NCBI GenBank assembly: GCA_043737035.1
Contig: JAYTBK010000317.1
Coordinates: 1 to 35,140 of the forward strand
Source of the DNA: Bacteroidota bacterium
GTDB taxonomy: Bacteria; Bacteroidota; Bacteroidia; B-17B0; Aurantibacillaceae
Direction: 5' to 3'
Length of the DNA stretch: 35,140 nt
Shown: positions 10,488 through 35,140 of the stretch, piece after piece
Layout of the letters: each line of letters begins with the position of its first letter
Position numbering within the stretch: position 1 is the first letter of the stretch
Made by a program: the position numbers and the translations under genes
The notes under the pieces: generated by a model
The model's input: the letters and a program-made list of their open reading frames with translations, nothing else
What the model was told of the DNA's origin: nothing
The model's database searches: none

Positions 10488-10611
10488 AAAAGGCTCTGTT
10501 CAATTTCCGTTTAATAATAAGCCTAATATCCGGATAAAAATCTTATTATAACGGTTCGGGCACTGCTTTTTTAAAACTAATTTCATTTACTCCGGTAGTT
10601 AATCATGTTTG

Positions 10612-10627
10612 TGGCATATATGTTGCG
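10612..10627 (+). promoter_or_regulatory. sigma-54 (-24/-12) promoter upstream of the multi-PAS histidine kinase
   Basis: TGGCATATATGTTGCG matches TGGCAC-N5-TTGC with correct GG/GC spacing. It lies about 108 nt upstream of the ATG at 10736. Confidence 0.65.
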
Positions 10628-10735
10628 GCTATAATTTTTACTTAAAAAAACGGCGGTTTTACCTTAAATATTTGTTTTTACAATATAAATGATATAAAAT
10701 TAGAGCTTATTAAACCTCATTAATTTTGTCAACCT

Positions 10736-13114
10736 ATGCCAACAATAAACGATTTTTTTAAATACCCGTTGCCATATGGAAATGAACAAATAAAGGAGAA
10801 TTGGCTGCAACAATCTTCTGGTGTCGTTCAAAGCGGATTATTAGACCACTCAACTCAATTTTTAACAGCGCTTCAAATAATTTATTATTCTCAAGACCCA
10901 AAAATGATAGTTTGGGGTAAGCAACATCACGTTTTTTTTAATTGTGCCGCTCAACAAACCTTTGGATTAGCCGCTATGTTGCAGGGCAAAAAACCTGATG
11001 CTGATTTAAATCCTGTCTTAGTCGCCGGTCTTAATTTTTTATCTCATGTTCAAAAAAATGTTCATTTAAATCAAATTACGCCACAAAGCATTCAGATTAA
11101 AGGTAAGGATTACAAAGTCCATTACTCACCTGTTGATTTCGAGCATAATGGTTTGCTTGCTTGCTTCGATACTTTAATGCTTAGCCAGAACACCGAAAAC
11201 GATTTAACAAGTAAACAACGACTGGAAGTATTTGTAGAAACAAGCGAACTCGGAACTTGGGAATTGAATATAATAACAAATCATATGGAGGTTTCAAAAA
11301 GATACCTTCAGATTATGGGTTTCGCAGAAGATGAACTCTATAATCGGGAGGAGTTTATAAAACGGGTTCATCCCGATGATTTAAAGATGCGTGATAATGC
11401 CTTAGCGAGCGCGTTAAAAAGCGGGATTATCAACTTTCGGTCGAAGTTTCTTTGGCGGGATGGTTCACTACATTGGTTTGAAGCAAAAGGGAAAGTTTTG
11501 TACGACAGCGCACAAACGCCTCTCAAAATGGTGGGAACGGTTCGCGACATTACATCCGAAAAAAAACACAAGCAATGCATTGAAGAGAATGAGCTAAGGT
11601 TACACACTACCGCCCTTTCAAGTGAACTCGGAACTTGGGAATATGATCCGTTAACCGGAACAATGAGATGGGACGAAGCCTCTCGGAAATTATTTGGTGT
11701 TGACCCAGAGACTGAAATTACTACAGAATTATTTATGAACAAGATCCACCCGGATGATCGCGAAGCTGCATTAAGCAAAATGCAAGATGCGCTCAACCCG
11801 GATATAAATAGCACTTATGATATGGAGTACCGAACCGTAGCTTGGCCAAATGATGAAGTAAGATGGATACATGCTAAAGGAAAGGCGTTTTTTAATGAAC
11901 ATAATATTCCTTTTCATTTTTCTGGCACCGTGCTCGATATAACCGAGAAACGTGGTGCGCTGGAAGAGTTAAAGGAAAATGAGCAAAAGTTTCGGTTGCT
12001 TGCTAACTCAATGACGCAGTTTGTTTGGACTAGTGATGAAAACGGTAATCTTAATTATTTTAATCAGTCGGTTTATGATTACTCGGGGTTAGCGCCGGAA
12101 AAAATAAATGCTGAAGGTTGGCTCCAAATTGTTCACCCCGACGAGCAACAACTAAACATTGATAAATGGATTGAGTCTGTAACCACCGGAAAGGATTTCT
12201 TGTTTGAGCACCGGTTTAAACGTTATGATGGTGAATACCGTTGGCAATTGAGTCGCGCCATGGCACAAAAAGACGCTTACGGTAAAATACAAATGTGGGT
12301 AGGTACCAGCACGGATATCCATGATCAAAAAACTTTTGCTCGCGAACTGGAACATAAAGTGGAGGAACGTACAAATGATTTACAACTTGCAAACAAAGAA
12401 CTAGCGCGTAAAAATGAAGAGTTAGCTTCGTTTGCCTATGTTTCGAGCCACGATTTACAAGAACCTTTACGAAAAATACAAACTTTTGCTGCACGCATTT
12501 CTGAAAAAGAAATCCTGACAGATGCAGGGAAAGATTATTTTGCACGGATGCAAAACGCGGCACAACGCATGCAACTTTTAATAGAAGATTTGCTTGCATA
12601 CTCGCGAACAACTACTGGCGAAAAGGTTTTTGTAAAAACTGATCTACACCAAATTTTAACTGAGGTAACAACCGATTTGGAACAAGTTATAAAAGAAAAA
12701 AAAGCAGTGATAATTTCCGAAAATTTACCTGAAATAAATTGTATTCCTTTTCAATTCAGGCAACTGTTTACAAATATTATTTCAAATGCATTAAAATTTT
12801 CAAAGGCTGGTGTAGATCCCGAAATTCGTATTTCTTCGGAATTAGTAAACGACCCTTTACAACTGAGCGAAAACGAAATTCAAAAACAATGTTATCAAAT
12901 AATAATTTCCGATAACGGAATAGGATTTTCTCCAGAATATAATTCCCGCATCTTTGAAGTATTTCAGCGTCTTCATGGTAAACACGAATATAAAGGAACG
13001 GGCATTGGCTTGGCAATTTGCAAAAAAATAATGGATAACCATAACGGTTCGATCACTGCCGTTGGCAATCCAGACGTTGGTGCTACATTTCGCATCACAA
13101 TTACTAAAAATTAG
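10736..13114 (+). CDS. cytoplasmic multi-PAS sensor histidine kinase
   Basis: No TM segment. Repeated PAS/PAC units (GTWELN.., GTWEYDP.., FRLLANSMTQFVWT..), a coiled-coil linker, H-box SSHDLQEPLRKI, N-box NIISNALKFS and G-boxes DNGIGF and GTGIGLAICKK. Confidence 0.9.
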   Translation: MPTINDFFKYPLPYGNEQIKENWLQQSSGVVQSGLLDHSTQFLTALQIIYYSQDPKMIVWGKQHHVFFNCAAQQTFGLAAMLQGKKPDADLNPVLVAGLNFLSHVQKNVHLNQITPQSIQIKGKDYKVHYSPVDFEHNGLLACFDTLMLSQNTENDLTSKQRLEVFVETSELGTWELNIITNHMEVSKRYLQIMGFAEDELYNREEFIKRVHPDDLKMRDNALASALKSGIINFRSKFLWRDGSLHWFEAKGKVLYDSAQTPLKMVGTVRDITSEKKHKQCIEENELRLHTTALSSELGTWEYDPLTGTMRWDEASRKLFGVDPETEITTELFMNKIHPDDREAALSKMQDALNPDINSTYDMEYRTVAWPNDEVRWIHAKGKAFFNEHNIPFHFSGTVLDITEKRGALEELKENEQKFRLLANSMTQFVWTSDENGNLNYFNQSVYDYSGLAPEKINAEGWLQIVHPDEQQLNIDKWIESVTTGKDFLFEHRFKRYDGEYRWQLSRAMAQKDAYGKIQMWVGTSTDIHDQKTFARELEHKVEERTNDLQLANKELARKNEELASFAYVSSHDLQEPLRKIQTFAARISEKEILTDAGKDYFARMQNAAQRMQLLIEDLLAYSRTTTGEKVFVKTDLHQILTEVTTDLEQVIKEKKAVIISENLPEINCIPFQFRQLFTNIISNALKFSKAGVDPEIRISSELVNDPLQLSENEIQKQCYQIIISDNGIGFSPEYNSRIFEVFQRLHGKHEYKGTGIGLAICKKIMDNHNGSITAVGNPDVGATFRITITKN

Positions 13115-13193: not shown

Positions 13194-13766
13194 CTATTTG
13201 TGCATTACTACAGTATTTACTACATGTATTACACCGTTACTTTGGTTTACATCTTTAATCGTTACCATTGATGTACCGCCTTTTTCGTCAGTTAGTATTA
13301 AATCTTTTCCTTTCATGGTAGCAGTTAACATACCACCTTGTACGGTTTTTAATTCTGCTTTACCATTTCCTTTTTTTATTAACGCTGCTATATCCGAAGA
13401 ACTGAATTTTCCTGATACCACATGGTAAGTTAAAATGTTAGTTAATGTAGCTTTGTTTTCAGGCTTAACTAAAGTTTCTACAGTTCCTTTAGGCAATTTA
13501 TCAAATGCTGCGTTTGTTGGTGCAAATACTGTAAAAGGGCCGGCACTTTGTAAAGTTTCTACCAAACCTGCAGCTTTAAGTGCCGCTACTAAAGTTGTAT
13601 GGTCTTTAGAATTAACCGCATTTTCAACAATGTTTTTTGATGGGTACATTGCTGCTCCACCAACCATTACCGTTTTTTCTTTTGAATCCATTTTTTGTTG
13701 TGCAAAAGCTCCTTGAGATAAAAGTGTTGCACAAGCCAATACTGCCATTTTTGAGATAATTTTCAT
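13194..13766 (-). CDS. secreted fasciclin (FAS1) domain protein
   Basis: Signal peptide, then FAS1 motifs FTVFAPTNAAFDKLP and NGVIHVVNTVVM. Confidence 0.88.
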   Translation of the reverse strand: MKIISKMAVLACATLLSQGAFAQQKMDSKEKTVMVGGAAMYPSKNIVENAVNSKDHTTLVAALKAAGLVETLQSAGPFTVFAPTNAAFDKLPKGTVETLVKPENKATLTNILTYHVVSGKFSSSDIAALIKKGNGKAELKTVQGGMLTATMKGKDLILTDEKGGTSMVTIKDVNQSNGVIHVVNTVVMHK

Positions 13767-14489: not shown

Positions 14490-14607
14490 GGGTATGGATT
14501 TTAAATTTCCGATAAAAATTAATTTCAACTATTGTACCCGCTTAACACCACTTTTTTAAAAAATATGTATGGCATATTAATTTATGAGTAAATGAAAATC
14601 TCGTACC

Positions 14608-15028: not shown

Positions 15029-15979
15029 ATGAAAAAAATTAATCTGCATTCAAAAAACCTTTGGAAGGTCACAAAAAAAACCGCTAAAGCCTGGATGGCC
15101 GCCGATCCTTTTCGACAGAGCGCGGTGATTGCCTATTACGCCATTTTTTCAATTCCTGCGCTGTTGGTAATTATTATAACCTTGGCGGGATTTGCATTTG
15201 GTAAAGAAGCTGTGCAAGGCGAAATTTCCAGTCAGATAGGATCCGCAATTGGATCTGATGCTGCCGATTCTGTAGAAGAAATGATCGCTAAAGCAGGGGC
15301 ACAAAAAAATTCAATTTGGGCTACTATTATAAGTGTTATTACCTTAATACTTGGAGCAACAGGCGTTTTTGCCCAACTGCAAATTTCTTTAAACCAAATT
15401 TGGGAAGTAAAAGTTACCGCTAAAAAGAAATGGTTAAAAAGTTTGAAAGATCGTTTGTTTTCCTTTGGGCTCATCATTTCGATCGGGTTTTTGTTACTGA
15501 TCTCGTTACTTCTAAGTACAGGATTATCTGCATTTAGCGAATGGATAAAAGTTCATTTACCCGATTTTATGTTGTATGTCTTTCAACTGTTAAATTTCGT
15601 AATATCATTTGGTGTGGTGGCTGTTTTATTTGCCATGATGTTTAAAATTTTACCTGACGCCCGAATACAGTGGCGAGACGTTTGGATTGGAGCAATTGCT
15701 ACTTCGCTCCTATTTGTGATTGGTAAGTTCGCTTTGGGCTTTTATTTTGGAAAAGCAAATCCGGGTTCTACCTATGGTGCGGCCGGCTCAATTGTATTAA
15801 TTATGTTATGGGTTTCATACTCTTGTATGATTGTATTTTTTGGAGCTGAATTTACAAAACAATTCGCCGTATTCAACGGCAGGAAAATAGAACCTGCTAA
15901 CGATGCCGTGAAAATTGAGTTGCCAGCCGATGAGGAATTACTGGCAGAAAAAAAGGAAGCAACCAAACAGGCAAAATAG
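15029..15979 (+). CDS. YihY/BrkB family membrane protein (copy 1)
   Basis: About 6 TM segments and a family-typical N-terminus (FRQSAVIAYYAIFSIPALL). It is collinear with the paralog at 25547..26479. Confidence 0.85.
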   Translation: MKKINLHSKNLWKVTKKTAKAWMAADPFRQSAVIAYYAIFSIPALLVIIITLAGFAFGKEAVQGEISSQIGSAIGSDAADSVEEMIAKAGAQKNSIWATIISVITLILGATGVFAQLQISLNQIWEVKVTAKKKWLKSLKDRLFSFGLIISIGFLLLISLLLSTGLSAFSEWIKVHLPDFMLYVFQLLNFVISFGVVAVLFAMMFKILPDARIQWRDVWIGAIATSLLFVIGKFALGFYFGKANPGSTYGAAGSIVLIMLWVSYSCMIVFFGAEFTKQFAVFNGRKIEPANDAVKIELPADEELLAEKKEATKQAK

Positions 15980-16311: not shown

Positions 16312-16489
16312 TATGTTTAATGTTTCAAAATAAATATCACTGCTATCAAACATACACATAATTTTATAGCAATATGGGTGTAGATAAATTTGGCCAAAAT
16401 AAATCGTATTAAAAAATAGGCGTCATTTTCTCAAATTTTATGGCTTAAATAGTTCGGAATCGAAATTGATTGGTAATATATAAAAAACC

Positions 16490-18088
16490 ATGGATTCAAC
16501 AGCTAACGTCAATGCCAAACTTACTTCGGGAAACCATCTTCCTTATTGGGTAGGTTCCACAACACCTATTATGTTTTCCAAGTTAACCGAAAATAAATAT
16601 ACAGATGTAGTTATTGTTGGTGGTGGCATAGCAGGCGTTACCATTGCTTATTGTTTAAGCAAAGCCGGCAAAAAAGTTATATTAATTGAAGATGGATTCA
16701 TCGGAAGTGGAGAAACCGGCAGAACTACTGCGCATTTGGCTTCTGCGCTTGATGACCGTTATTATGAACTTGCAAACCAATTTGGCAAAGAAAATACCAA
16801 ACTCATTGCTGAAAGTCATACACTGGCAATAGATTTTATTGAACAAACAATTGCCTCGGAAAATATTGATTGTGATTTTACCCGGTTAGATGGGTATCTT
16901 TTTTTACATCCCACGGATAAAGCGCAACATCTCGAGGATGAACTTAACGCGACGCAAGCGGCGGGTTTAAAAACTAGCTTTACAAACATCGTTCTCGGTG
17001 ACGGAACCCATAAATCAATTGTATTTCCTAACCAAGCGCAATTTCACCCTTTAAAATATATAGCTGCTTTATGCGATGCAATTAAAAAAAGCGGGTGCGA
17101 AATTTATACAAGCACGCGTGCTAAAAAAATAGATGATAAAGGCATCACCACCAGCGATGACTTTACAGTTGAAGCTCAACATATAGTAGTTGCAACCAAC
17201 AGCCCTGTAAACAATAGGTTTGTTATGCATCTAAAACAATATCCTTACCGCACGTATGTAATAGGTGCAAAAATTAAAAAAGGAGTGTTACCCAAAGCGC
17301 TCTGGTGGGATACAGGGAATTTCGAGATGAACTCTGAAATGGCACCATACCATTATGTACGAACACAATACTTGGATACCGAATATGACCTTTTAATTGT
17401 AGGTGGTGAAGACCATGCAACGGGTTTAGCGGATGCTGAAAAGTTGCCGGAGGAGAAACGATATTCAATACTCGAAATTTGGACAAAAAAACACTTTCCG
17501 CAAATTGAAGAAGTGATTTATAAATGGAGCGGTCAGGTGATGAAACCAATGGATTGCCTAGCTTACATAGGCCGTAATCCTTTAGATAAGGATAACGTAT
17601 TTATTGTTACCGGTGATTCGGGAAACGGGATGACACATGGTACCATTGCTGGAATATTAATTACGGACTTAATAACAGGAAAAAAGAACCCGTGGGAAAA
17701 ATTATACAGCCCATCGCGATTTAATATTTTTAAATCAGGAAAAACGTTTATTAAAGAATTGGTGGGAACAATGATCGCGCATATCAAAACTAAACCACAC
17801 CATCTTGAAACTACAGGACTTAAAGATATACATCCTGATGAAGGAAAAATTATTGAATTTAATGGTGAAAAATTTGGTGCTTACCGCGATTCAAATGATA
17901 ACATACATTTTGTAGCGGCCGAGTGTACTCATTTAGGTTGCCTTATAAAATGGAACAACGACGAAAAAAGTTGGGATTGCCCGTGCCACGGAAGTCGGTT
18001 TAATCACGAAGGAAAAGTTTTAAACGGCCCGGCAATTAAAAATTTGGATTATCACACACAAAATAAAACAACAATTAATAATTTATAA
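16490..18088 (+). CDS. FAD-dependent oxidoreductase fused to a C-terminal Rieske [2Fe-2S] domain
   Basis: Dinucleotide-binding motif VVIVGGGIAGV near the N-terminus. Rieske ligand motifs CTHLGC ... CPCHGSRF near the C-terminus. Confidence 0.88.
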   Translation: MDSTANVNAKLTSGNHLPYWVGSTTPIMFSKLTENKYTDVVIVGGGIAGVTIAYCLSKAGKKVILIEDGFIGSGETGRTTAHLASALDDRYYELANQFGKENTKLIAESHTLAIDFIEQTIASENIDCDFTRLDGYLFLHPTDKAQHLEDELNATQAAGLKTSFTNIVLGDGTHKSIVFPNQAQFHPLKYIAALCDAIKKSGCEIYTSTRAKKIDDKGITTSDDFTVEAQHIVVATNSPVNNRFVMHLKQYPYRTYVIGAKIKKGVLPKALWWDTGNFEMNSEMAPYHYVRTQYLDTEYDLLIVGGEDHATGLADAEKLPEEKRYSILEIWTKKHFPQIEEVIYKWSGQVMKPMDCLAYIGRNPLDKDNVFIVTGDSGNGMTHGTIAGILITDLITGKKNPWEKLYSPSRFNIFKSGKTFIKELVGTMIAHIKTKPHHLETTGLKDIHPDEGKIIEFNGEKFGAYRDSNDNIHFVAAECTHLGCLIKWNNDEKSWDCPCHGSRFNHEGKVLNGPAIKNLDYHTQNKTTINNL

Positions 18089-18099
18089 TAAACCATCCC

Positions 18100-18324
18100 A
18101 TGAAACATAAAGATCTCACACTACATCCCGAAGATTTCGAAAATATAAGCTACTGGACTCACAAATGGGGCGTTACCGCTAGGCAAGTAAATTATGCGAT
18201 ACTTGATACAGGCAGTTTAAAAGTAAACGACATTAAAAATTATCTTAGAAAAGATATTTGGTATTACTCGCCTGTTACAGGATTAATAAATTTATTTAAA
18301 GCAAAATTTGGCAGTATAAATTAA
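18100..18324 (+). CDS. DUF3606 domain protein
   Basis: 74 aa with ENISYWTHKWGVTARQVNYAILDTGS, resembling the DUF3606 core. It starts 11 nt after the preceding gene. Confidence 0.7.
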   Translation: MKHKDLTLHPEDFENISYWTHKWGVTARQVNYAILDTGSLKVNDIKNYLRKDIWYYSPVTGLINLFKAKFGSIN

Positions 18325-18350
18325 CGCAGAGAAAATGCAAAGGAATATTT

Positions 18351-19113
18351 ATGTTACAACTTGATCAATTAAAACTTTCGAATAAAAAAATAAAAACCAT
18401 TTTACACGATTCCGAAAAAAGCACTGCTTCAGTAAACTTATTGTGCATGTACGGTAACAAATCCGGGATTAACCGCATAAAAAAACGAAAACATTTTATT
18501 TACATTTCCGAAAAAAAACATATAGAAGATCAAAAAAGTTTAGGACGCATCAAAAAATTAATAATACCACCGGCATGGCAGAATTTATGGATATGTGAGG
18601 CACGCAACGGCCATCTGCAAGCTACGGGAATTGATATAAAATTAAGGAAACAATACAAATATCACACGCTTTGGAATTCGTTGCGTAACAACACCAAATT
18701 TTGCAGACTACATCAATTCGGCAATTCTATAGCAGCCATACGGCGGAAAATTGAGAAATATCTGGCGTTAAGCGGCCTTCTATTGCAAAAAGTTTTGGCT
18801 GCTGTTGTATGTATAATGGAGCGCATGAGCACACGCGTTGCAAACAGCATGCACGAAAAACTGTATGGGTCGTTTTGGTTAAGAACATTTAAGGATCAGC
18901 ACATAAAAATAACCCGTAACAATATGCAGTTTTCGTTTGTTGGAAAAAAACGGGTACCGCATAAAATCAGTCTAGCCAGCAAACGGCTTGAGAAAATTGT
19001 GCAAGAAGGGCAATGGATTAGTACACCATATTACTGATTACAAACATTGATTGAGCGCAGAAGAAAAATTGCTTATGAAAATTTTGGAAGAAGAAGGACT
19101 AACTTTAAAATAA
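18351..19113 (+). pseudogene. DNA topoisomerase IB remnant with an internal deletion that removes the catalytic C-terminal part
   Basis: The N-terminal two-thirds is recognisable (IPPAWQNLWICEARNGHLQATGIDIKLRKQYKYH, YGSFWLRTFKDQHI, FSFVGKKRVPHKISL). The ORF stops at 19037 at 228 aa, before any Tyr active-site region. A short, possibly C-terminal-like peptide (LSAEEKLLMKILEEEGLTLK*) follows in a different frame and ends at 19113. Confidence 0.65.
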
Positions 19114-19117
19114 AATT

Positions 19118-19906: not shown

Positions 19907-20044
19907 ATGTTGGGGAAATTAATCCTCAATGTATAAATCGACTTTATATTAAAAATATTAAAATTGTTTGTTTGTTAAAAATACGGAATGGCACATTATT
20001 ATCTATATTTCCAAAAAACTTCAAATTAAAACACCTTAAATAAT

Positions 20045-21145: not shown

Positions 21146-21148
21146 TTC

Positions 21149-24615: not shown

Positions 24616-24631
24616 TGGCATCTTTTTAGCA
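24616..24631 (+). promoter_or_regulatory. sigma-54 (-24/-12) promoter upstream of a small lipoprotein gene
   Basis: TGGCATCTTTTTAGCA has GG and GC at the canonical spacing and the same TAGCA -12 element as the site at 2316. It lies 35 nt upstream of the ATG at 24666. Confidence 0.65.
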
Positions 24632-24968: not shown

Positions 24969-25433
24969 TTATTTAGATTGAATTTCTGATTTTAAATTGT
25001 GCTTTTCCACCGCTTCATCAATTGAATGCGTTGTATGTAAATCTTTCTCTTTAGACGAAAGCGCCGCGAGTTTCACATAATACGTTTTTAATACTTCTAT
25101 TTCATCTGAAGTAAGATCTTCGATATCGATCAACCTGTTGCTTGCCATTTTATTACAGGCAATAAGCTCATTTAGTTTCAAATGTAAAGCCTTGGTATCC
25201 TTATTTTGCGACTGCTGAATAACAAAAACCATTAAAAAAGTAATAATTGTTGTACTTGTATTTATTACTAATTGCCATGTATCTGAAAAATTGAAAATAG
25301 GTCCGGATAAAGCCCATATTAGTATAACAATAAAGGCGATCGCAAAAGCGAAAGGGCTGCCTGTAGCAGAAGTAACTTTTGTTGAAAAGGAATCGAATGA
25401 TTTTTTCATAGTGTATGTTTTCTGGATTTTCAA
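24969..25433 (-). CDS. low-affinity iron permease family protein
   Basis: Core FSDTWQLVINTSTTIITFLMVFVIQQSQNKD matches my recollection of the family signature (DTWQL-INT-TTI-TFL). Two TM helices, about 150 aa. Confidence 0.78.
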   Translation of the reverse strand: MKIQKTYTMKKSFDSFSTKVTSATGSPFAFAIAFIVILIWALSGPIFNFSDTWQLVINTSTTIITFLMVFVIQQSQNKDTKALHLKLNELIACNKMASNRLIDIEDLTSDEIEVLKTYYVKLAALSSKEKDLHTTHSIDEAVEKHNLKSEIQSK

Positions 25434-26646: not shown

Positions 26647-27765
26647 ATGGAAACAGACAAAACCATTAACAAATACATCTACGCATTTTTTATTTTATCG
26701 CTTGGAGTTTTTATTTTTTTTGGATTGCACGAGTTACTGAATGCGTTTTTAGGAAGCGTTGTATTTTATGCGCTCTTTAAAAATTTTATGCATTTTTTAA
26801 CCCGCAGGCGGAAATTTAAACGTTCGTTTTCCGCAGTTATTATCATCCTCATTTCTTTCGTTATTGTGGTTTTGCCAATATCAATTTTACTTGTTATGCT
26901 TTTTAATAAAGCCGGGCAAATGGCAGGTCATCCCGAAGTGCTTTCACAATACGTTGATAAATTTACAGTTAAACTTAAATCACTCCCTTTTGATGTTAGC
27001 GCCGATAGTTTAGGCGTAAAAGTAAAGTCATACCTTGCCGCGCATTTAGGAGGCCTGTTAAGTACATCTTTAAGCACTATTGGAAGCGTATTGATGATGT
27101 ATTTTTTTCTGTATTTTTTACTCATCAACACCAACTCAATGGAAGCACGCATTGTGCATTTTCTCCCGTTTAAAAAGTCAAAAATATTGCTCTTTGGTAA
27201 AGAGCTCGTTGATCAAACCTACAGTAATGCAATTGGAGTGCCGTTGGTTTCGGTGGCGCAAGGAATATGCGCTTACTTGTGCTATAAAATTGCCGGTGTT
27301 AACGATGCCGGGCTTTGGGCAATATTAACAGGTTTTGCTTCTATTATTCCTTTAATTGGTACGGCTTTAATTTGGCTTCCGGTTGCCTTAGTTTTATTTG
27401 CCGATAATCGTTTTTGGCAAGGAGCCTTTGTAAGTGTTTACAGCATCATTATATTAAGTAATATTGATAATCTCGTTCGTATGATTGTGTCGAAAAGAGT
27501 TGGAGATGTGCACCCTGTTATTACAGTGTTAGGGGTAATTATTGGCTTGCAGTTTTTTGGTTTGCCGGGCTTGGTTTTTGGACCACTTATCATTTCCTAT
27601 TTTATTATTTTACTTAAATTATTTTACATGGAATATTCTCAAAAACCCATAACAGTGCTACCTGAACCTCAATATAAATTTGAAACCAACGTTATTAAAT
27701 TACTTTTAAAACAACTCGACAATCTAAATCCAATAAGTCCTCCGCGTAAACAAAATATAAAATGA
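26647..27765 (+). CDS. AI-2E (PerM/UPF0118) family transporter (copy 2)
   Basis: Polytopic, with the motif region SIIPLIGTALIWLP ... GLPGLVFGPLI. It is divergently placed next to YihY copy 2. Confidence 0.85.
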   Translation: METDKTINKYIYAFFILSLGVFIFFGLHELLNAFLGSVVFYALFKNFMHFLTRRRKFKRSFSAVIIILISFVIVVLPISILLVMLFNKAGQMAGHPEVLSQYVDKFTVKLKSLPFDVSADSLGVKVKSYLAAHLGGLLSTSLSTIGSVLMMYFFLYFLLINTNSMEARIVHFLPFKKSKILLFGKELVDQTYSNAIGVPLVSVAQGICAYLCYKIAGVNDAGLWAILTGFASIIPLIGTALIWLPVALVLFADNRFWQGAFVSVYSIIILSNIDNLVRMIVSKRVGDVHPVITVLGVIIGLQFFGLPGLVFGPLIISYFIILLKLFYMEYSQKPITVLPEPQYKFETNVIKLLLKQLDNLNPISPPRKQNIK

Positions 27766-28469
27766 AATATATATTGATTTTCATTTCTGTACTCGCTTTC
27801 AATTCACTTTTTTCTCAAAAAAAATACAGTCGAAAACAGTTTCGCATAGATTCGTTAAAAATAGTGCGGCCAAGACTGGTACGACCACAGGTTCGTCTTG
27901 ATAATAAAACGCTTTTTTATCAAGGAGAAGTATATAACATTAACGGATTTGATTTTGGAGCGATAATTAAAGAGAAAATAAGACTTACTTTGGGGTACTA
28001 TTATTTAAACGATTTTTTAAATGATCATGTACGTTCCAATAATACGTTCGACAGACATTTAAATTTAAAATACGGCAGTTTAAACGCTGAATTTATTTAT
28101 TTAAACACGCGATTTTTTACGTTAGGGATTCCATTCGAATTTGGGTTCGGCGGTAACACTCTACGTTATAAAATTGATTTGGCTGATGAAAATTACCAAA
28201 CAACTTCGGGTTTTGTATCGTCTTTAGATGTGGGTTTATCCGGAACTTTCAAACCAATAAGGTGGATAAATGTAAGATTGGTTGCCGGCTATCGTAAAAC
28301 ATTAATTAATCAGGTTGATGATTTAAAATTTGAAGGGGCACTTTTATCGTTTGGTATTGGCGTAAACATTAGAGAAGTTAGTAAAGACATCCGAATGTTT
28401 GCTTTGAAGAAAAAATATAAGAGATTGGGGAATCCACTTGATACAGCGGTTGACCTGATAACCGACTAA
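27762..28469 (+). CDS. secreted hypothetical protein, possibly a small outer-membrane beta-barrel
   Basis: Signal peptide MKYILIFISVLAFNSLFSQ and alternating beta-like segments (LNAEFIYLN, LDVGLSGTF, LLSFGIGVNI). An ATGA start/stop overlap with the upstream AI-2E gene suggests translational coupling. Confidence 0.4.
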   Translation: MKYILIFISVLAFNSLFSQKKYSRKQFRIDSLKIVRPRLVRPQVRLDNKTLFYQGEVYNINGFDFGAIIKEKIRLTLGYYYLNDFLNDHVRSNNTFDRHLNLKYGSLNAEFIYLNTRFFTLGIPFEFGFGGNTLRYKIDLADENYQTTSGFVSSLDVGLSGTFKPIRWINVRLVAGYRKTLINQVDDLKFEGALLSFGIGVNIREVSKDIRMFALKKKYKRLGNPLDTAVDLITD

Positions 28470-28517: not shown

Positions 28518-29021
28518 TTAAACCCAATAACGTAAAGCAAAATAAGTAACTAAACCCATGGCAGTAAACGTTAAGAAAAATACAATCATAAACACATTAA
28601 TTCCGAATTCCGCAATAAAGTATCGGATGGGTTGTTGTATTGTTTGATCAATAACATTTAAAATCTGTTGCCATGCTCCGCGTTCATTCCGTATATAATC
28701 GCGTGCGCCATGTTTTATAGCATCCACTGCAAGCGCCACATTTTCATCGGATGATAAAATAATTACTTCAGTACGCGGATTTTTTTCTTTTACCTTTTGT
28801 AACATGTCGATGCCAGCAATTCCTGTATGGGAACTTTCTTTTAGGTAATCGTCTACCACTACCAAGTCCACATGTTCGTTAAGCATGCGAAGACAGCTCC
28901 GACTATTGAAAAAAAGTGAAATAGTTAACCTTTCACCAAATCGTTTTTTAAGATAGCGACGTAATTTACCGGCCACCATTACATCATCATTTAAGATGAA
29001 AACATTTAAACTGGTATTCAT
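28518..29021 (-). CDS. receiver domain protein with a C-terminal transmembrane anchor
   Basis: Receiver motifs (FILNDD, DLVVVDDYL, IILSSD, AIKHGARDYI) followed by a single hydrophobic helix INVFMIVFFLTFTAMGLVTYFAL. No other output domain. Confidence 0.8.
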   Translation of the reverse strand: MNTSLNVFILNDDVMVAGKLRRYLKKRFGERLTISLFFNSRSCLRMLNEHVDLVVVDDYLKESSHTGIAGIDMLQKVKEKNPRTEVIILSSDENVALAVDAIKHGARDYIRNERGAWQQILNVIDQTIQQPIRYFIAEFGINVFMIVFFLTFTAMGLVTYFALRYWV

Positions 29022-29375
29022 AACGTTAAATTTTAGTATTAATTAAAATGCTTTAATTCCGAGTCGGCCAAATAAGAGTTAAAATGGCAACAACTACTAT
29101 TATCACCAATACAATCCACCAAACCGTATGTGCTTTAAAAGCTCCGCCTACGGAAACTCAGTTTTGGAGTGCAAAAAGCAATATAGCAATTATCGAATAT
29201 AGCAATGCATTTTTCCATGTAAATGAGTTTGTAATAATTACTGCAATTATGATTCCATCACGCGCATCCTGAAAAGTGATAAGTATACAACATTCAATGA
29301 GTAAAAAGTAGAATTTTATACACGCCAAAAACGCTTCAGTTAAAAAGCGCTACGGTAAAATGAAAAATGAAAAGA

Positions 29376-30854
29376 TTATGCCGCTTTCCTAAAATTTTTG
29401 CTCGGAATATTCAATTCTTCACGGTATTTGGCTACAGTACGGCGGGCGATGCTGTATTTTTTTTGAATTAGTTGTTTCGCTATTTCTTCATCACTTAACG
29501 GGTTCGATTTGTCTTCGGCCGATACACATTCCATTAATATTTTCTTCACCTCGTTGGTACTAACTATTTCTCCGGTAGTAGTACTTAAACCTTCAGCAAA
29601 TAAGCCTTTCATCAATATAGTGCCATAAATAGTTTGAATATATTTACTGTTTACAATACGCGAAATAGTGGAAATATCAGAATTAATTTCCTTAGCAATG
29701 TTTTTTAGGATTAAAGGCTTCAGGTCAGATTCTTCACCGGTAATAAAATATTTTTTTTGATGCTTAACGATTGCTTTGGCAACTGTTACCATTGTTTTTT
29801 CTCGCTGTTGCAATGCATCAATAAACCATTTAGCACTTTCAATTTTGTTTTTGATAAAACCCGATGCTTCACGCGCACTTTTATCTTTCGATTTTGAGTA
29901 CGATTGTAGCATCTCAACATAACCTTCGCTAATTTTTAATGGCGGATGTTTAGATGAATTTAAAAACAATTCCACATTATCACCGGTTACTGAAACAGCA
30001 AAATCAGGTTGTATGGTAATAGCTTTACTCCCGCTTTCGCGTGAAGATCCTGCAGGTGCTGGGTTTAATCGCTTTATCTCGCTTAAAGCATCGCGCATAT
30101 CTTCGTCGTCAAGTTTCAATGTTTTTTTAATCAATTCGAAATTTTTACCTGATAAAGCTTCCATGTAATTTTCAAGTATGGTAATAGCAGTATAAGTGTC
30201 TTTTGTTTTTTGCTTTTTTGATTTCAATTGTACGATTAAACATTCCTGCAAATTTTTACATCCCATTCCTATAGGCTCCAAAGTTTTAATTTTTGACAAA
30301 ACTTCGTCAAGCTCTTCTTCCGTTACAAATGTGTTTTGCACAAAAGATAATTCATCCGAAATATCACTTAGCGTGCGGCGCAAATATCCATCACTTTCTA
30401 ACGTATTAATTAAATAATAGCCTATTTCTTTTTGCTTATCCGTTATCGGTAACAATTTTAATTGATCGATTAGCGGCTCCGTAAAATCATGACTTTCTAA
30501 AAATACCTGCTCTCTTTTTTCATCTTCGTTAACATGGTTATTTGATTCGTATTTATAATCGTCGAGCGCGTCCTTGTCCATATAATCGGTGTAATCGTAA
30601 TCTTCCCCTAATTTGCCTTCCGATACATTATCATCGTCACCATCGTTTTGCGTGTCCGCATCAGCATCATTATTCTCATCCGCATCTCCCGGAATTTCAT
30701 CCATTTCATACTCAAGTGCAGGATTAATGGCCATTTCTGCAGCAATGCATTGTTCTAAAGCAACCGTTGGTAAAGATAACATGTTAAACAGCTGTATTTG
30801 CTGTGAGGTAAGTTTTTGAGTTTGCCTTTGAGATTGAGATTGAATAATTGCCAT
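29376..30854 (-). CDS. rpoN: RNA polymerase sigma-54 factor
   Basis: Gln/Leu-rich region I (QSQRQTQKLTSQQIQLFNMLSLP), a long acidic region II, a core-binding region, and a C-terminal HTH plus RpoN box ARRTVAKYRE. Start taken as the ATG at 30854, because the GTG at 30893 lies inside a terminator hairpin. Confidence 0.93.
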   Translation of the reverse strand: MAIIQSQSQRQTQKLTSQQIQLFNMLSLPTVALEQCIAAEMAINPALEYEMDEIPGDADENNDADADTQNDGDDDNVSEGKLGEDYDYTDYMDKDALDDYKYESNNHVNEDEKREQVFLESHDFTEPLIDQLKLLPITDKQKEIGYYLINTLESDGYLRRTLSDISDELSFVQNTFVTEEELDEVLSKIKTLEPIGMGCKNLQECLIVQLKSKKQKTKDTYTAITILENYMEALSGKNFELIKKTLKLDDEDMRDALSEIKRLNPAPAGSSRESGSKAITIQPDFAVSVTGDNVELFLNSSKHPPLKISEGYVEMLQSYSKSKDKSAREASGFIKNKIESAKWFIDALQQREKTMVTVAKAIVKHQKKYFITGEESDLKPLILKNIAKEINSDISTISRIVNSKYIQTIYGTILMKGLFAEGLSTTTGEIVSTNEVKKILMECVSAEDKSNPLSDEEIAKQLIQKKYSIARRTVAKYREELNIPSKNFRKAA

Positions 30855-30918: not shown

Positions 30919-31095
30919 TTATTTATTTCGTTTTAGTAATGTGCCGCCTGCAATAAGCGTAATTAAAAACAATACGATGAAAATGAAAAATAAAATTTTG
31001 GCTATTCCTGCGGCACCTGCGGCAATTCCGGTAAAGCCAAATAGTGCTGCAACTATAGCAACTACTAAAAATATTAAGGTCCAACGTAACATCAT
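30919..31095 (-). CDS. DUF1328 (YtjA/UPF0391-like) small membrane protein
   Basis: This 58-aa ORF is below the ORF-track length cutoff. It reads [58 protein letters not shown], the characteristic two-helix, Gly/Ala-hinge pattern. Confidence 0.8.
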
Positions 31096-31551
31096 TTAAA
31101 ATTTAATTGGTTTATATTACAACACACTTTGAAACAATAGTGCCGAAATTTATGTGTAGTTAACCATTTAAAAATCAGTAACTTGAGCAAGTATTAAATT
31201 TTATGTAAGATTGTTAAGTGGGGAAAATTGTACACATATTTAATTCTTTTTATGTATTATTGCATAAATATCAAAAAAGTTAGGATATGAAAAGCCCTCA
31301 TCCGGTGAAATCAAACAAGATGTTCAAAAAAATCCACTGTTTTTCATCACAGGGCATCTAATTTGATTGCGATACACACGTTGCGCCGGATATTATAAAA
31401 AATTTGTGGATAATTTACCCGATCGATCAAAACGCAATAAACGCACTCTGAAACAAAAAATGCGTATTGTATATTAATTATGAAAATAGAATGAACCTTC
31501 CAAAGGTATAAAGTCGCGAACCGTTAGAACGAATTTAAAAAAATCCCTATT

Positions 31552-33012
31552 ATGAATATTTTAGTAATTGATGATGATGCCGATATCTGTATGTTACTTA
31601 ACAGGTATCTTTCTAAAAACGGGTTTATTGTAAGAACAGCGTATACCGGTAAAGCGGCGTTGGAAAGCATAATAAATGAAATACCTGATATTGTTTTGTG
31701 CGATTTTAGGCTTGACGATATGAACGGGAGCGAGCTGCTTGAAAAAATAAAACAGATAAATACAGCAATTCCTGTAATTATTATGACGGGTTATAGCGAT
31801 GTTCGCACCGCCGTAAATATTATGAAATCCGGAGCATTTGATTATGTAACAAAACCTTTATTACCCGAAGAAATTTTACATACTTTAAAACGGGCACTTA
31901 ACGAAAGCAAAATTAATAACGAAACGCAGGAACCCGCTGTTAAGGGAACTACTCCGGAGAGCGAACCTAAAAAAGTAAAAAAATATAAAAGCAAATATGT
32001 ATTTGGTAAAAGTCCCATTTTTAAAATCATACTTGAGCAAATACAACTCGTAGCCCCAACTAACTTTAGCATTATTATTTATGGCGAAAGTGGAAGCGGC
32101 AAAGAATCAGTTGCTAACGAAATCCATAATAACAGTATAAGGGCGCACAAACCCTTTGTAGCAATTGATTGCGGCGCACTATCTAAAGAGTTAGCAAGTA
32201 GCGAATTATTTGGTCATGAAAAAGGTTCCTTCACCGGTGCGATCAATCAAAAAATAGGAAGCTTTGAACTTGCAAATGGTGGTACCATTTTTTTAGATGA
32301 AATAGCCAATCTTTCTTACGAAATACAAATGGCATTGCTGCGAGTTGTGCAGGAACGCAAAATGCGCCGCGTGGGCGGAGTTAAAGATATTGACCTTGAT
32401 GTTAGGATTATTGTTGCAAGTAACGAGCGGTTATCGGAATCGGCTAAAAAAGGAAAGTTTCGCGAAGATCTTTATCACCGGTTTAATGAATTTAGTATAG
32501 AAGTTCCCCCATTGCGCAACCGACGTGAAGATATTATGTTATTTGCAGAAGTGTTTTTAGAGAAAACAAATGGCGAACTCAACAAATCGGTTAAAGGTTT
32601 TTCTGAAGAAGTAACGCGTATTTTTAATCAATATTCATGGCCGGGTAATTTGCGCGAACTTAATAATGTTGTAAAACGCTCTACATTATTAACGCTGGGC
32701 GAAGAAGTACAGGTTTCATCTCTGCCCTTTGAAATAACTCATTTCGATCAATTAAACTTTGAAGCTGAAAACGCAGCGCAAGCCGAGGTTAAACCAACCG
32801 CCCCTATAATGGCCGAGCCCCCCAAAAAAGTTTTGCCATTAAATGATCAGGGGATGAAGCACGCATCCATCGATGCCGAATTTGAATTGATTGTTGAAGC
32901 ATTAAAAAAATGTAATTACAATAAAAGCAAAGCAGCCCAATTATTAAACATCGACCGAAAGACGCTTTATAATAAAATGAAGCAGTATAAAGAATTTAAT
33001 GGCGAATTTTAA
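31552..33012 (+). CDS. sigma-54-dependent response regulator (NtrC-family enhancer-binding protein), second copy
   Basis: Receiver (ILVIDDD, VLCDFRLDDMNG). AAA+ core with GESGSGKE, the loop variant GSFTGA and IFLDEIAN. Fis-type HTH NKSKAAQLLNIDRKTLYNKM. Confidence 0.93.
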   Translation: MNILVIDDDADICMLLNRYLSKNGFIVRTAYTGKAALESIINEIPDIVLCDFRLDDMNGSELLEKIKQINTAIPVIIMTGYSDVRTAVNIMKSGAFDYVTKPLLPEEILHTLKRALNESKINNETQEPAVKGTTPESEPKKVKKYKSKYVFGKSPIFKIILEQIQLVAPTNFSIIIYGESGSGKESVANEIHNNSIRAHKPFVAIDCGALSKELASSELFGHEKGSFTGAINQKIGSFELANGGTIFLDEIANLSYEIQMALLRVVQERKMRRVGGVKDIDLDVRIIVASNERLSESAKKGKFREDLYHRFNEFSIEVPPLRNRREDIMLFAEVFLEKTNGELNKSVKGFSEEVTRIFNQYSWPGNLRELNNVVKRSTLLTLGEEVQVSSLPFEITHFDQLNFEAENAAQAEVKPTAPIMAEPPKKVLPLNDQGMKHASIDAEFELIVEALKKCNYNKSKAAQLLNIDRKTLYNKMKQYKEFNGEF

Positions 33013-33074
33013 AAATTTATTATTTCTTCCAAAACTCATTAAGGTAATTATCTCCAAACTAAGCGCATTATAAT

Positions 33075-34502
33075 ATGGTACCCGATTTAAAAATTTTGAT
33101 CATAGATGACGATGAAGACGATTTTTTTATTACCTCGCAATACCTCGAAACCATCGAGGCGTTTAATGTAAACTGCAGTTGGAGTTACAACATTGCCGAC
33201 GCCCAAAAAAAACTCGCTTCAAACGCGTATGATATTTATTTTTTAGATTACCGGCTCGGTGCTAAAACAGGCTTGGAGTTATTAGTAGACGCAATAGAAA
33301 ACGGATCGTACAAACCTATCATTTTACTTACGGGAAAAGGAACTGTTGAAATAGATAAACTTGCAGTTGAAAATGGTGCGTACGATTATTTGGTTAAAAG
33401 CGACCTCACCGCTGAAAAACTGGAACGTTGCATTAGGTACGCTTACGAAAGGTATCGAAGCTTTAAAGTTATTAATGATAATGAAAAAAAGTTCAGACTG
33501 ATTTTTGAGAACGCCTTGAGTTTTATTTTTACATGCGATCCGTTACTACATTTTAGCGATGCAAATCCTGCATCCGAATACTTGCTCGGCTATCTTCCGC
33601 ACGAACTAAAAGACCGTTCGTTTTTTAATATTATAGACGAAGCGGATAAGCAAAATCTAAAAAAATTGCTTGTCGAGAAAAAAGGTATTTACAATCTTAA
33701 TGTACGGCTTGTAACAAAGCACAACGAAATTAAAACCGGAAACCTTTCATTAAATTATTTTGAAAGCGATAACGAAGGCTCGTATTGGCAAGGGATCATT
33801 TACGATGAAACCATTCGGGTACAGGCTGAGTTGGCCAAACTTCAATCAGAAAAACTGGAAGCTACATATAGGCTGGTTCGTACGTTAGCCCACGAAATAA
33901 GAAACCCGCTTACTAACATTGGCTTATCGTTAGAAGGCTTAGTTGAAAAAGGAATTCAGGATTCGCAAAAACCATATGTGGATATTATTAAGCGTGGGGC
34001 CAAGCGAATTAACGATATCATTACCGAATTACTGCAATCGAGTAAAGCCATCGAAATAAAACCCGAATTGGTTGACCTCAATGCTTTACTAAAAGAGGTG
34101 ATTAGCATTGCACAGGATAGAATTGAACTTAAAAAAATAAAGACTAAAATTTCACTGCTCGATTTTCCAGTAATTCGAGCGCTCGATAAAGAAAAATTTA
34201 AAATCGCCATTCTAAACCTTGTAGTTAACGCGGTAGAAGCAATGGAAAATGAAGGCAGTTTGCTAACCGTTAGTCTTAGTCAAAACCTCGAGCATACTGT
34301 AATTTTAATTAAAGATAACGGATCTGGAATTAAGGAAGAAGATCTAAAAATGCTTTTTGAACCCTATTTTACAACAAAAAAAACCGGAATGGGATTAGGC
34401 CTAGTTTCTACTTTAAACATTATAAAATCACATAAAGCTAAAATTGAGGTGGACTCGAAAATTGGTGTAGGCACAACCTTTAAAGTTACTTTTCCGAATT
34501 AA
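33075..34502 (+). CDS. cytoplasmic REC-PAS-HisKA-HATPase histidine kinase (N-terminal receiver)
   Basis: ILIIDDDEDD and IYFLDYRLGAKTG (receiver), a PAS region, an NtrB-like H-box LAHEIRNPLTNI, N-box LNLVVNAVEAM and G-boxes DNGSGI and GMGLGL. No TM segment. Confidence 0.9.
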   Translation: MVPDLKILIIDDDEDDFFITSQYLETIEAFNVNCSWSYNIADAQKKLASNAYDIYFLDYRLGAKTGLELLVDAIENGSYKPIILLTGKGTVEIDKLAVENGAYDYLVKSDLTAEKLERCIRYAYERYRSFKVINDNEKKFRLIFENALSFIFTCDPLLHFSDANPASEYLLGYLPHELKDRSFFNIIDEADKQNLKKLLVEKKGIYNLNVRLVTKHNEIKTGNLSLNYFESDNEGSYWQGIIYDETIRVQAELAKLQSEKLEATYRLVRTLAHEIRNPLTNIGLSLEGLVEKGIQDSQKPYVDIIKRGAKRINDIITELLQSSKAIEIKPELVDLNALLKEVISIAQDRIELKKIKTKISLLDFPVIRALDKEKFKIAILNLVVNAVEAMENEGSLLTVSLSQNLEHTVILIKDNGSGIKEEDLKMLFEPYFTTKKTGMGLGLVSTLNIIKSHKAKIEVDSKIGVGTTFKVTFPN

Positions 34503-34751
34503 TTTCTTTAAGGGGCAAAATTTTTCCCTTCAATAGGCCGGTTCCTCGTTTTAAAAGTGAATTATGTTGGCATTTTGTTTGATTTACTTAATCGAATAAA
34601 TTAAGAACATTTTTTAAAAAACTAAATTTTCAAAATAAGTAGGGCAAACTAATTTATAGCTTTTAAAGTTAAACACTGTATTTATATTTGTCTCATTGTT
34701 GGTTATGAATGGGGGCTGAACTAGCCTTCATTTTTTTAAATTTATAAAATA

Positions 34752-35140
34752 ATGAATACTTTAACGAAGCACATAAACATTAAGCGGCTACTTGGTTCCA
34801 TTGCATTTTGTGAAATGGTGGGAGTTGCAGCCGCATTATTTACAATGGACGCCATAAGGAATTGGTATGTTGATTTAAATAAACCGGATTTTAATCCGCC
34901 AAATTGGATTTTCGGTCCGGTTTGGACATTGCTTTATTTTCTAATGGCCATTAGCTTTTACAACAACTTACAAACCAAGATTAAAGATTTAAATTACAGA
35001 CGCACGAACGTATTTTTTACAATACAATTAACTCTAAATTTTTGCTGGACGGTGGCATTTTTCGGCTTACGTAATCCAACATTAGCTTTTGCCGTTATAC
35101 TTTTGCTCATTACAAGTACATGTTTTTGGATCTTACATTT
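34752..35140 (+). CDS. tspO: TspO/MBR (tryptophan-rich sensory protein) family, 3' end outside the window
   Basis: WYVDLNKPDFNPPNWIFGPVWTLLYFLMAISFY is the family signature. The ORF runs off the window end. Confidence 0.85.
   Translation, partial: MNTLTKHINIKRLLGSIAFCEMVGVAAALFTMDAIRNWYVDLNKPDFNPPNWIFGPVWTLLYFLMAISFYNNLQTKIKDLNYRRTNVFFTIQLTLNFCWTVAFFGLRNPTLAFAVILLLITSTCFWILH

Follow-up and report, generated by a model that had tools for sequence, protein, structure and literature searches.

A divergent rpoN in a conserved Bacteroidota gene cassette as a candidate dedicated sigma-54 stress regulon

The organisation of the general stress and stationary-phase response in Bacteroidota is poorly understood and, to our knowledge, no general stress sigma factor has been established in this phylum, in which systems of the RpoS, SigB and EcfG type are lacking. 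A 35,140-nt stretch of DNA from a Bacteroidota bacterium (assembly GCA_043737035.1, contig JAYTBK010000317.1; the whole stretch is called the window below) carries rpoN, the gene for sigma-54, among genes of stress or dormancy type, and the question that this locus raises is whether the sigma factor is an extra copy serving these neighbours. Our analysis suggests a dedicated stress regulon around such an extra sigma-54, as predicted from sequence features. The three computational checks that the original prediction called for, on rpoN copies, gene neighbourhood and promoters, all came out in its favour. We find it somewhat probable that the window holds a sigma-54 cassette of a type that we call rpoN2, with a proposed dedicated activator (the enhancer-binding protein EBP2), input from multiple kinases and about ten sigma-54-type promoters, that of its own operon included. 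Computed directly were the status of the clade as a paralog, the conservation of the linkage and, for the promoter-like sites, that they are present, oriented, enriched and conserved. The features at the centre of the argument are the following.

28518-29021 (-), stand-alone receiver REC167 (Pfam), conserved downstream of rpoN
29376-30854 (-), RpoN of the rpoN2 type, 492 amino acids (Pfam; translation)
30925-31098 (-), DUF1328/YtjA-like small membrane protein (NCBIfam PRK13682), first gene of the DUF1328-rpoN2 unit
31552-33012 (+), EBP2, a REC-AAA+-HTH_8 activator (Pfam)
33075-34502 (+), REC-PAS-HisKA-HATPase hybrid kinase (Pfam), conserved beside EBP2

Extra-copy status of rpoN and conservation of its neighbourhood

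In the RpoN protein of the window we found the region I activator-interacting domain (PF00309, E = 1.5e-10, residues 18-61 of the open reading frame (ORF) read from GTG) as well as the core-binding and DNA-binding domains (PF04963 and PF04552, Pfam), with an RpoN box reading ARRTVAKYR and a helix-turn-helix (HTH) motif, SDISTISRIVNSKY, as aligned to K. pneumoniae sigma-54. The true start is an ATG, the exact protein being on record only with this start; the GTG at 30893 was rejected, since no such protein is on record. The recognition helix D-I-S-T-V-S-R is common to the window RpoN and the mainstream Bacteroidota copies, and the changes specific to the window clade lie in the first HTH helix and the turn. 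The change from H-E-S in K. pneumoniae to D-I-S was considered as specific to the paralog and rejected, as it is phylum-wide. With region I, HTH and RpoN box unchanged, RpoN2 should be activator-dependent and should read the same -24 element.

The best 120 database homologs of this protein form a continuum from 100% to 60% identity, with no cultured name among them. An exhaustive search of representatives clustered at 50% identity gave 577 bits for the window clade's own representative and 382 bits, at 45% identity, for the next cluster. Mainstream Bacteroidia RpoNs, taken from metagenome-assembled genomes (MAGs) of Flavobacteriales, Chitinophagales and Bacteroidales, are 54-68% identical to one another and 40-45% (maximum 48%) identical to the window clade. 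In a neighbor-joining tree the window clade is monophyletic in 100 of 100 bootstraps, and its long stem is nested among mainstream sequences, the placement to be expected if the copy was duplicated and evolved fast. Judged by its sequence, the window rpoN is thus of a divergent rpoN2 type and not of the ordinary housekeeping type.

The mainstream copies sit in housekeeping contexts: one (P0217) adjoins the gene of a class II aminoacyl-tRNA synthetase, presumed to be asnS, another (P0242) lies in a tyrS-rpoN-folD context, and a third (P0424) is beside tyrS with glmS downstream. Both types occur together on a JGI contig of 1,429,376 bp (Ga0456370_0000002). Its mainstream copy (P0506, named 'rpoN1' at NCBI), which came from a search seeded with the nearest mainstream RpoN protein, lies at 308,481-309,974 among fabH, ispF and gld genes (L059). 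The window-type copy (P0018, 71% identical to the window RpoN) lies at 1,382,484-1,383,962, with DUF3606, DAO/Rieske, NUDIX, a DUF1328-like gene, NDH-2, Dps/ferritin and DUF2383 as neighbours (L062). The NCBI accessions of the two proteins, MCD6067300 and MCD6065805, differ by 1,495, which would fit their submission as one MAG. That the window rpoN is an extra paralog, a point on which the original prediction depended, is therefore supported by an isolated clade and by the two types on one contig of a relative; for the window's own genome we infer the second copy. Tetranucleotide similarity was of no help in assigning a housekeeping rpoN copy to a lineage, because the GC content in the window clade spans 31 to 47%.

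Upon scanning one genome per GTDB species, with gene linkage assessed by tblastn of the window proteins against the loci, we obtained 12 loci whose RpoN is 61-86% identical to that of the window, all from uncultured Bacteroidota/Bacteroidia MAGs. DUF1328 is linked to rpoN in 11 of the 12, as also in the two-copy relative (L062), and EBP2 adjoins rpoN in nine of them at 70-89% identity. On the longer contigs the REC-PAS kinase, REC167, the 235-amino-acid protein, the second AI-2E gene, the iron permease and the lipoprotein recur, as do an intact form of the receiver that is split in the window, Holin-X, YtxH, REC134 and the PqiA-like protein. The first AI-2E gene and Ku were seen in only one relative (L002). 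At 61-62% RpoN identity (L009-L012), EBP2, rpoN and nearby receivers persist, with YtxH also kept in L009 and L011. The neighbourhood in L062 is rearranged, comprising DUF3606, DAO/Rieske, DUF1328, Dps and DUF2383, and the DAO/Rieske-DUF3606 pair adjoins rpoN2 there. The expectation that the neighbourhood would be conserved across related genomes is borne out by these tblastn comparisons, in 12 loci down to 61% RpoN identity.

A metagenome search with the DAO/Rieske protein retrieved another rpoN in similar company (L022), its RpoN 36% identical to that of the window and its neighbours being Ku, DUF421, a Holin-X-like gene, AI-2E, DUF4142 and DAO/Rieske; a small YtxH-like ORF there gave a weak tblastn match only. 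It belongs to a second, small and isolated rpoN clade (L022, L051, L052 and the context of P0127), 47-100% identical internally and about 41% identical to all else. Two further members have YtxH, Holin-X and a hypothetical gene, a DUF748 or CHASE3 kinase gene, rpoN and a REC-activator, and one of them (P0150) also has a MASE3-PAS kinase, a REC-PAS kinase and a REC gene after the activator. Gene order and strand vary between second-clade loci, with a DUF2383 or AI-2E gene nearby. The second-clade activator is 54% identical to EBP2 and its REC-PAS kinase 41% identical to that of the window. The two rpoN clades are sisters in 0 of 100 bootstraps, and there is no support for one common origin of the cassette's sigma. 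Since the second clade is not a sister and yet stands in an analogous cassette, the same cassette logic surrounds two unrelated divergent sigma-54 lineages.

Sigma-54-type promoter sites and a candidate enhancer box

We identified ten oriented intergenic -24/-12-like sites that precede transcription units in the window, all ten with the GG and the fixed spacing.

2316..2331 (+), TGGCAC-CGAAA-TAGC, 41 nt before the porin gene (porin-SPFH-Kup), downstream of EBP1; outside the range of the original prediction
10612..10627 (+), TGGCAT-ATATG-TTGC, canonical-looking, 124 nt upstream of the triple-PAS kinase
14570..14585 (+), TGGCAT-ATTAA-TTTA, upstream of a 60-amino-acid ORF and YihY/BrkB 1
16455..16470 (+), CGGAAT-CGAAA-TTGA, 35 nt upstream of DAO/Rieske; weaker, with A at the fourth position
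19989..20004 (+), TGGCAC-ATTAT-TATC, upstream of AI-2E 1 and PqiA-like (20045-22543); ortholog site in L002
22990..23005 (+), TGGCAT-TAATT-TATA, upstream of YtxH-HolinX
24616..24631 (+), TGGCAT-CTTTT-TAGC, upstream of the 79-amino-acid lipoprotein
29242..29257 (-), TGGAAT-CATAA-TTGC, upstream of a small membrane ORF and REC167
31130..31145 (-), CGGCAC-TATTG-TTTCA, promoter of DUF1328-rpoN2
34568..34583 (+), TGGCAT-TTTGT-TTGA, upstream of TspO

The pattern TGGCAY-N5-T[AT][TG] has eight matches in the window, of which seven are intergenic, each 38-184 nt before a gene (porin, PAS kinase, 60-amino-acid ORF/YihY1, AI-2E 1, YtxH, lipoprotein and TspO). A T[AT][TG] at the -12 spacing follows 7/9 intergenic TGGCAY hexamers versus 1/26 in coding sequence. 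A broader pattern adds DAO/Rieske (16455), the small ORF with REC167 (29257) and DUF1328-rpoN (31145), and yields 12 intergenic matches where 0.88 are expected; no shuffle among 2000 gave more than 6. The strict TGGCAY-N5-TTGC with one mismatch has 10 matches window-wide versus 4.7 expected, and 4 of 100 shuffles reach 10, so that it is not significantly enriched. Both sites named in the original prediction exist, the one at 10612 as an exact TGGCAY-N5-TTGC and the one at 24616 with TAGC; enrichment, which it proposed to test across the genome, appears in the window with the wider pattern, in ten oriented intergenic sites, and is not significant for the strict pattern with one mismatch.

Conservation is a stronger argument for the promoters than counts in the window. 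At the YtxH promoter, nine loci, the most distant at 61% RpoN identity, share an unchanged TGGCA between variable flanks. At the DUF1328-rpoN promoter, GGCACTATT is invariant in 12 loci, the two-copy genome included, while its flanks vary, and the -12 is of the TT(T/A) type, reading TTTCA in 10/12 loci. Before the small ORF and REC167, TGGAAY-N5-TTGCA is kept in the window and four relatives (L002, L004, L005 and L007) within a spacer that is otherwise unalignable, and the relatives' equivalent of the 34568 site precedes a PA2169-family gene beside TspO. Furthermore, the intergenic site density relative to the shuffle expectation is 7x in window-clade loci and 10x in second-clade loci, which serve as an independent check, versus 2.4x (3 matches) in housekeeping rpoN loci. 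Overall, predicted sigma-54-type promoters precede most of the stress-type transcription units and are conserved in relatives. No sigma-54-type site was predicted for the AI-2E 2/235-amino-acid pair or the iron permease/YihY 2 pair; EBP2 with its REC kinase, and REC134, are without -24/-12-type sites, and the presumed effectors have them.

Near EBP2 in relatives, AGGCATTTAATTTGC was considered as a promoter and rejected, as it falls within the gene of a CHASE3-like kinase, where its codons read S-K-L-N-A-L. In most of the 12 aligned loci (L002-L013 positions) a TA(C/T)(T/C)GTATAAT block closely follows the DUF1328-rpoN promoter (window 31100-31130, minus strand); it may mark the region of the start site or, alternatively, a second -10 element of sigma-70 type.

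Upstream of the promoters we observed a degenerate box, TG[T/G][A/G]GA[A/T], which we counted 26 times in 35 regions upstream of promoters (-130 to -25), where 3.2 are expected and 2000 shuffles gave 13 at most. Measured from the -24 T, it lies 76 nt upstream at DAO/Rieske (TGTAGAT), 78 at AI-2E 1 and 78 at the lipoprotein (both TGGGGAA), and 80 at DUF1328-rpoN; the YtxH promoter has boxes 46 and 65 nt upstream, and in the PA2169 promoters of relatives GTTCC(A/C)CA stands at a constant position. These positions would fit an activator that binds some 100 nt before the point where transcription starts. No exact palindromic enhancer site is shared upstream of the ten promoters, nor is TGGGGAAA with one mismatch enriched over the whole window; the enrichment is confined to the positional pattern and the degenerate box.

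Activators, kinases and decayed genes of the window

Both activators of the window, EBP2 and EBP1, combine REC, AAA+ and HTH_8 domains (Pfam) with a Walker A motif and are 36-38% identical to each other. The sigma-54-contacting loop reads GSFTGA in EBP2 (32209) and GAFTGA in EBP1 (1354). GSFTGA is found in most EBP2 orthologs (L002-L013, L051), neighbours of the second rpoN clade included, and GAFTGA in L010, L012 and L019. The remaining genes, with families called by Pfam/NCBIfam scans of the window ORFs, are as follows; those up to 9811 lie outside the range of the original prediction.

715-2061 (+), EBP1, REC-AAA+-HTH activator (Pfam)
2357-3718 (+), BBP2 porin (Pfam)
3850-4755 (+), SPFH protein (Pfam)
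4849-6783 (+), Kup, K+ transporter (Pfam)
6951-7253 and 7213-8646 (+), sensor kinase in two ORFs, a 4HB_MCP part and an overlapping HAMP-PAS-HisKA-HATPase part
8669-9811 (-), NhaA (Pfam)
10736-13114 (+), triple-PAS kinase (Pfam)
13194-13766 (-), fasciclin protein (Pfam/NCBIfam)
15029-15979 (+), YihY/BrkB 1 (Pfam), with the 60-amino-acid ORF upstream
16490-18088 (+), FAD/Rieske (DAO + Rieske) oxidoreductase (Pfam)
18100-18324 (+), DUF3606 (Pfam)
18351-19037 (+), TopIB, truncated (Pfam)
19118-19906 (+), Ku (Pfam)
20045-21145 (+), AI-2E 1 (Pfam)
21149-22543 (+), PqiA-like membrane protein (Pfam/NCBIfam)
22547-22909 (-), stand-alone receiver REC134 (Pfam), divergent from YtxH, conserved in relatives
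23061-23330 (+), YtxH, 89 amino acids (Pfam)
23349-24107 (+), Holin-X-like membrane protein, 252 amino acids (Pfam)
24104-24510 (-), receiver gene as two ORFs in different frames, intact and in a single frame in relatives
24666-24905 (+), 79-amino-acid lipoprotein, with an ortholog in relatives
24969-25433 (-), low-affinity iron permease family protein (Pfam), kept in several relatives
25547-26479 (-), YihY/BrkB 2 (Pfam), kept in several relatives
26647-27765 (+), AI-2E 2 (Pfam), conserved in relatives
27762-28469 (+), 235-amino-acid protein with no family match, conserved in relatives
34752-35140 (+), putative TspO (translation; family name from the original prediction), running off the window end, conserved in relatives

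The gene inventory on which the original prediction was built is confirmed by Pfam/NCBIfam for RpoN, EBP2, EBP1, Ku, the TopIB remnant, DUF3606, FAD/Rieske, YtxH with its Holin-X-like partner and DUF1328, and likewise for the low-affinity iron permease, the two YihY/BrkB and the two AI-2E proteins. Its signalling components need amendment. Three kinases, two of them soluble, had been counted within about 25 kb; the triple-PAS and REC-PAS kinases indeed have no hydrophobic segment, and the third (6951-8646) lies outside that range and is split. All three positions proposed for stand-alone receivers match REC, one of the genes (24104-24510) being frameshifted. The proposed sigma-54 regulon fed by a multi-step phosphorelay keeps its linkage and its sigma-54-type sites and loses the relay in its classical form, which is not supported as such because no Hpt domain was found in the scanned ORFs; the REC-kinase and single receivers suggest a branched or buffered phosphotransfer.

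Several genes are altered relative to their relatives. Alignment places a 5-nt insertion inside CGAATCGAATCGAAT, a run of three CGAAT, that shifts the frame of the receiver at 24104-24510; in four relatives the gene is intact and the insertion absent, and the split receiver could be a pseudogene or a slippage-prone switch. An ORF of about 54 amino acids between rpoN and REC167, encoding a membrane protein, is conserved in relatives and disrupted or out of frame in the window (29030-29240, minus strand). Upon comparing window positions 31099-31551 and 33013-33074 with positions 5534-9570 of L002, we found that a CHASE3-like membrane kinase, a PAS kinase and a PA2169-family gene, present there in all close relatives, are absent from the window without trace. 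In the relatives the CHASE3-like kinase gene is divergent from EBP2, the PAS kinase gene lies between EBP2 and the REC kinase, and the PA2169 gene precedes TspO. The window island is a partly decayed version of that of its relatives.

The two ORFs of the sensor kinase at 6951-8646 suggest another frameshift or stop in a signalling gene. The relatives' product of about 54 amino acids looks membrane or lipoprotein-like, and a 62-amino-acid ORF on the opposite strand (29084-29272, plus strand) is probably spurious. EBP1, the porin, SPFH, Kup and the sensor kinase (715-8646) form a separate cluster with its own -24/-12-like site, possibly a K+/envelope sigma-54 unit.

Given their tight spacing, DAO/Rieske, DUF3606, TopIB and Ku (16490-19906) are possibly one unit. 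The window TopIB has 228 amino acids versus 365 in L016; its N-terminal domain and the beginning of the catalytic core are retained, after which it is cut short, so that the catalytic tyrosine region is presumably missing. Full-length TopIB homologs follow DAO/Rieske in L016, where no match to DUF3606 was detected, and DAO/Rieske-DUF3606 in L018. The four genes recur together in unrelated metagenome contigs (L016-L023, L062), with an EBP2-like activator in L019, which suggests a mobile or repeatedly assembled stress gene set. The window has a GC content of about 34%. No tRNA gene or Rfam family was detected in its 35,140 nt, and no Pfam or NCBIfam model matched its proteins of 235, 212 and 102 amino acids.

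Proposed mechanism, rival readings and known sigma systems

In the mechanism that we propose, the sensor kinases, in the window the soluble triple-PAS and REC-PAS kinases, would phosphorylate the receiver domain of the adjacent EBP2, with the CHASE3 membrane kinase and another PAS kinase as added inputs in relatives, and the single-domain receivers would probably modulate or drain the phosphate flow. EBP2 would bind the TG[T/G][A/G]GA[A/T]-like enhancer boxes some 75-80 nt upstream of the -24 and, by ATP hydrolysis, would open sigma-54 holoenzyme complexes at the ten or so -24/-12-type promoters. The predicted targets are small membrane stress-type proteins (YtxH/Holin-X, DUF1328, the lipoprotein and TspO), transporters (AI-2E and YihY), the FAD/Rieske oxidoreductase with DUF3606 and Ku, the PAS kinase, a receiver, and the DUF1328-rpoN2 operon itself, whose own promoter would imply positive autoregulation or an RpoN1 to RpoN2 cascade. 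We infer that RpoN2 and EBP2 read these sites, that the kinases are wired to EBP2 and that the physiology is one of stress or dormancy. A bolder extension, which we put forward tentatively and regard as doubtful, is that a dedicated sigma-54 paralog acts as the general stress or dormancy sigma factor of a Bacteroidota lineage, autoregulated, fired by a GSFTGA activator and placed under PAS, CHASE3 and REC kinases, in a cassette assembled at least twice around unrelated rpoN lineages.

Several observations weigh against a dedicated RpoN2 cassette. The two rpoN copies were seen in a 71%-identical relative and not in the window's own genome, and in that relative (L062) neither EBP2 nor a kinase lies within 10 kb of rpoN2, and no intergenic site matches the narrow promoter pattern; looser sites there, found by eye only, read CGGCAC, or TGGCAT with TAAC. 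HTH and RpoN-box residues give no clear paralog-specific change. The -12 GC is present at only 4/10 window sites (10612, 29257, 2316 and 24616), the other six elements reading TTTC, TTGA, TATA, TTTA or TATC, and the lipoprotein promoter keeps TGGCA in relatives but its -12 varies. At the porin promoter next to EBP1 the -12 is relaxed in the same way, and the motif therefore does not tell RpoN1 and RpoN2 apart. Both patterns, for promoters and for boxes, were drawn up once the data had been seen, and orthologous sites are not independent. No Hpt domain was found in any scanned window ORF (Pfam; ORFs below 60 amino acids were not all scanned). Finally, with several island genes broken or lost, the system may be decaying in the window.

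Part of this evidence would suit a reading in which the sigma-54 promoters are real and the housekeeping RpoN1 reads them with EBP2, RpoN2 being redundant, a back-up or limited to a small promoter set of its own. The RpoN box and recognition helix are nearly the same in both types, the EBP1-linked porin promoter shares the relaxed -12, rpoN2 is not beside EBP2 in L062, and the promoter consensus of the Bradyrhizobium RpoN copies differs at only one position (PMC3162934). Nevertheless, rpoN2, EBP2 and target genes stay linked over wide divergence, and an unrelated rpoN clade occupies a cassette of this kind, together with an ortholog of the activator; persistent linkage and a second cassette are hard to explain if the extra sigma is irrelevant to these genes, and we regard this reading as unlikely. 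Less probable again is that TGGCAY is the binding site of another regulator, or an upstream element of another sigma factor, with the A/T-rich 'TATAA' a separate element. Most sites indeed lack the -12 GC, many read TATAA, TTTAA or TTGAA, and Bacteroidota promoters are generally unusual; against this, the GG is invariant, a T is conserved at fixed spacing, the TTGC/TTTC elements at 10612, 29257 and 31145 are canonical or nearly so, and the 5-nt gap between the elements is incompatible with -35/-10 geometry. The sites are, moreover, co-located with rpoN and an activator, and their distances of 35-184 nt to start codons fit promoters. Least probable, in our judgement, is that the window rpoN is the sole sigma-54 of its genome, relocated and fast-evolving, beside stress genes without regulatory meaning. 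A single rpoN is usual in bacteria and is what F. psychrophilum has (PMC9723704), and two copies are known from a relative rather than from the window's own genome; however, a clade member has both types on one contig, the clade is isolated, and the promoter-like sites are enriched and conserved at neighbouring genes.

The proposed RpoN2 cassette, conserved as it is, would offer a concrete, testable candidate for the general stress role in Bacteroidota. If the proposal is true, RpoN2 would be a functional counterpart of RpoS, SigB and EcfG on the enhancer-dependent sigma-54 mechanism, and survival genes would be governed by an unusual all-or-none, ATP-gated switch. Two to three rpoN genes are recorded in Niastella, Filimonas, Flavisolibacter, Flavihumibacter, Paraflavitalea, Pseudobacter, Emticicia, Runella, Arcticibacterium and Haliscomenobacter (PMC12316311 S5 Table, which gives rpoN counts only, without context, regulon or function), and genetic tests should be feasible in such cultivable Chitinophagia and Cytophagia, provided that similar islands surround the extra copies they carry. 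In full-text searches we found no paper that connects an rpoN paralog of Bacteroidota with a stress island.

The cassette belongs to the known theme of specialised sigma-54 paralogs. As in Rhodobacter sphaeroides (RpoN1-4) and in Xanthomonas, Ralstonia and Bradyrhizobium (RpoN1/RpoN2), more than one rpoN is present per genome, here in a clade member, and one copy would be tied, as in Proteobacteria, to a particular gene set and its activators. Promoters of such paralogs can differ by single nucleotides, at -11 in R. sphaeroides and -12 in B. japonicum (PMC3162934, PMC12316311). Unlike the Proteobacterial paralogs, which are associated with flagellar or nitrogen-fixation genes, the present one belongs to another phylum and is associated with stress/dormancy-type small proteins, transporters and Ku, and it is embedded with activator, kinases and targets in one conserved cassette, an association known by co-location. 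Within Bacteroidota, the single sigma-54 of F. psychrophilum controls GroESL, DnaK, Lon, gliding genes and exported/envelope proteins from 'typical' -24/-12 promoters mapped by 5'-end RNA-seq, and its regulon is induced by osmotic pressure, plasma and blood agar (PMC9723704); sigma-54-dependent chaperone genes in Bacteroidota were also reported by a 2025 comparative study (PMC12316311). Both there and here a Bacteroidota sigma-54 is connected with stress-related genes, in our case by prediction, but the F. psychrophilum regulon is one of protein quality control and gliding and not of YtxH, DUF1328, Ku, AI-2E and TspO, and no paralog or cassette was described.

In its gene content, the cassette resembles the RpoS (Gammaproteobacteria), SigB (Bacillota) and EcfG (Alphaproteobacteria) regulons, with which it shares YtxH, DUF1328/YtjA, Dps (in L062), Ku, PA2169/DUF2383 and small membrane proteins. 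In its proposed wiring, an alternative sigma factor with multi-kinase input and single-domain receivers, it is similar to PhyR/EcfG partner switching and to the RsbU/V/W inputs. Those sigma factors, however, are members of the sigma-70 family under anti-sigma factors or proteolysis, whereas the candidate described here would be a sigma-54 that depends on an ATP-driven activator.

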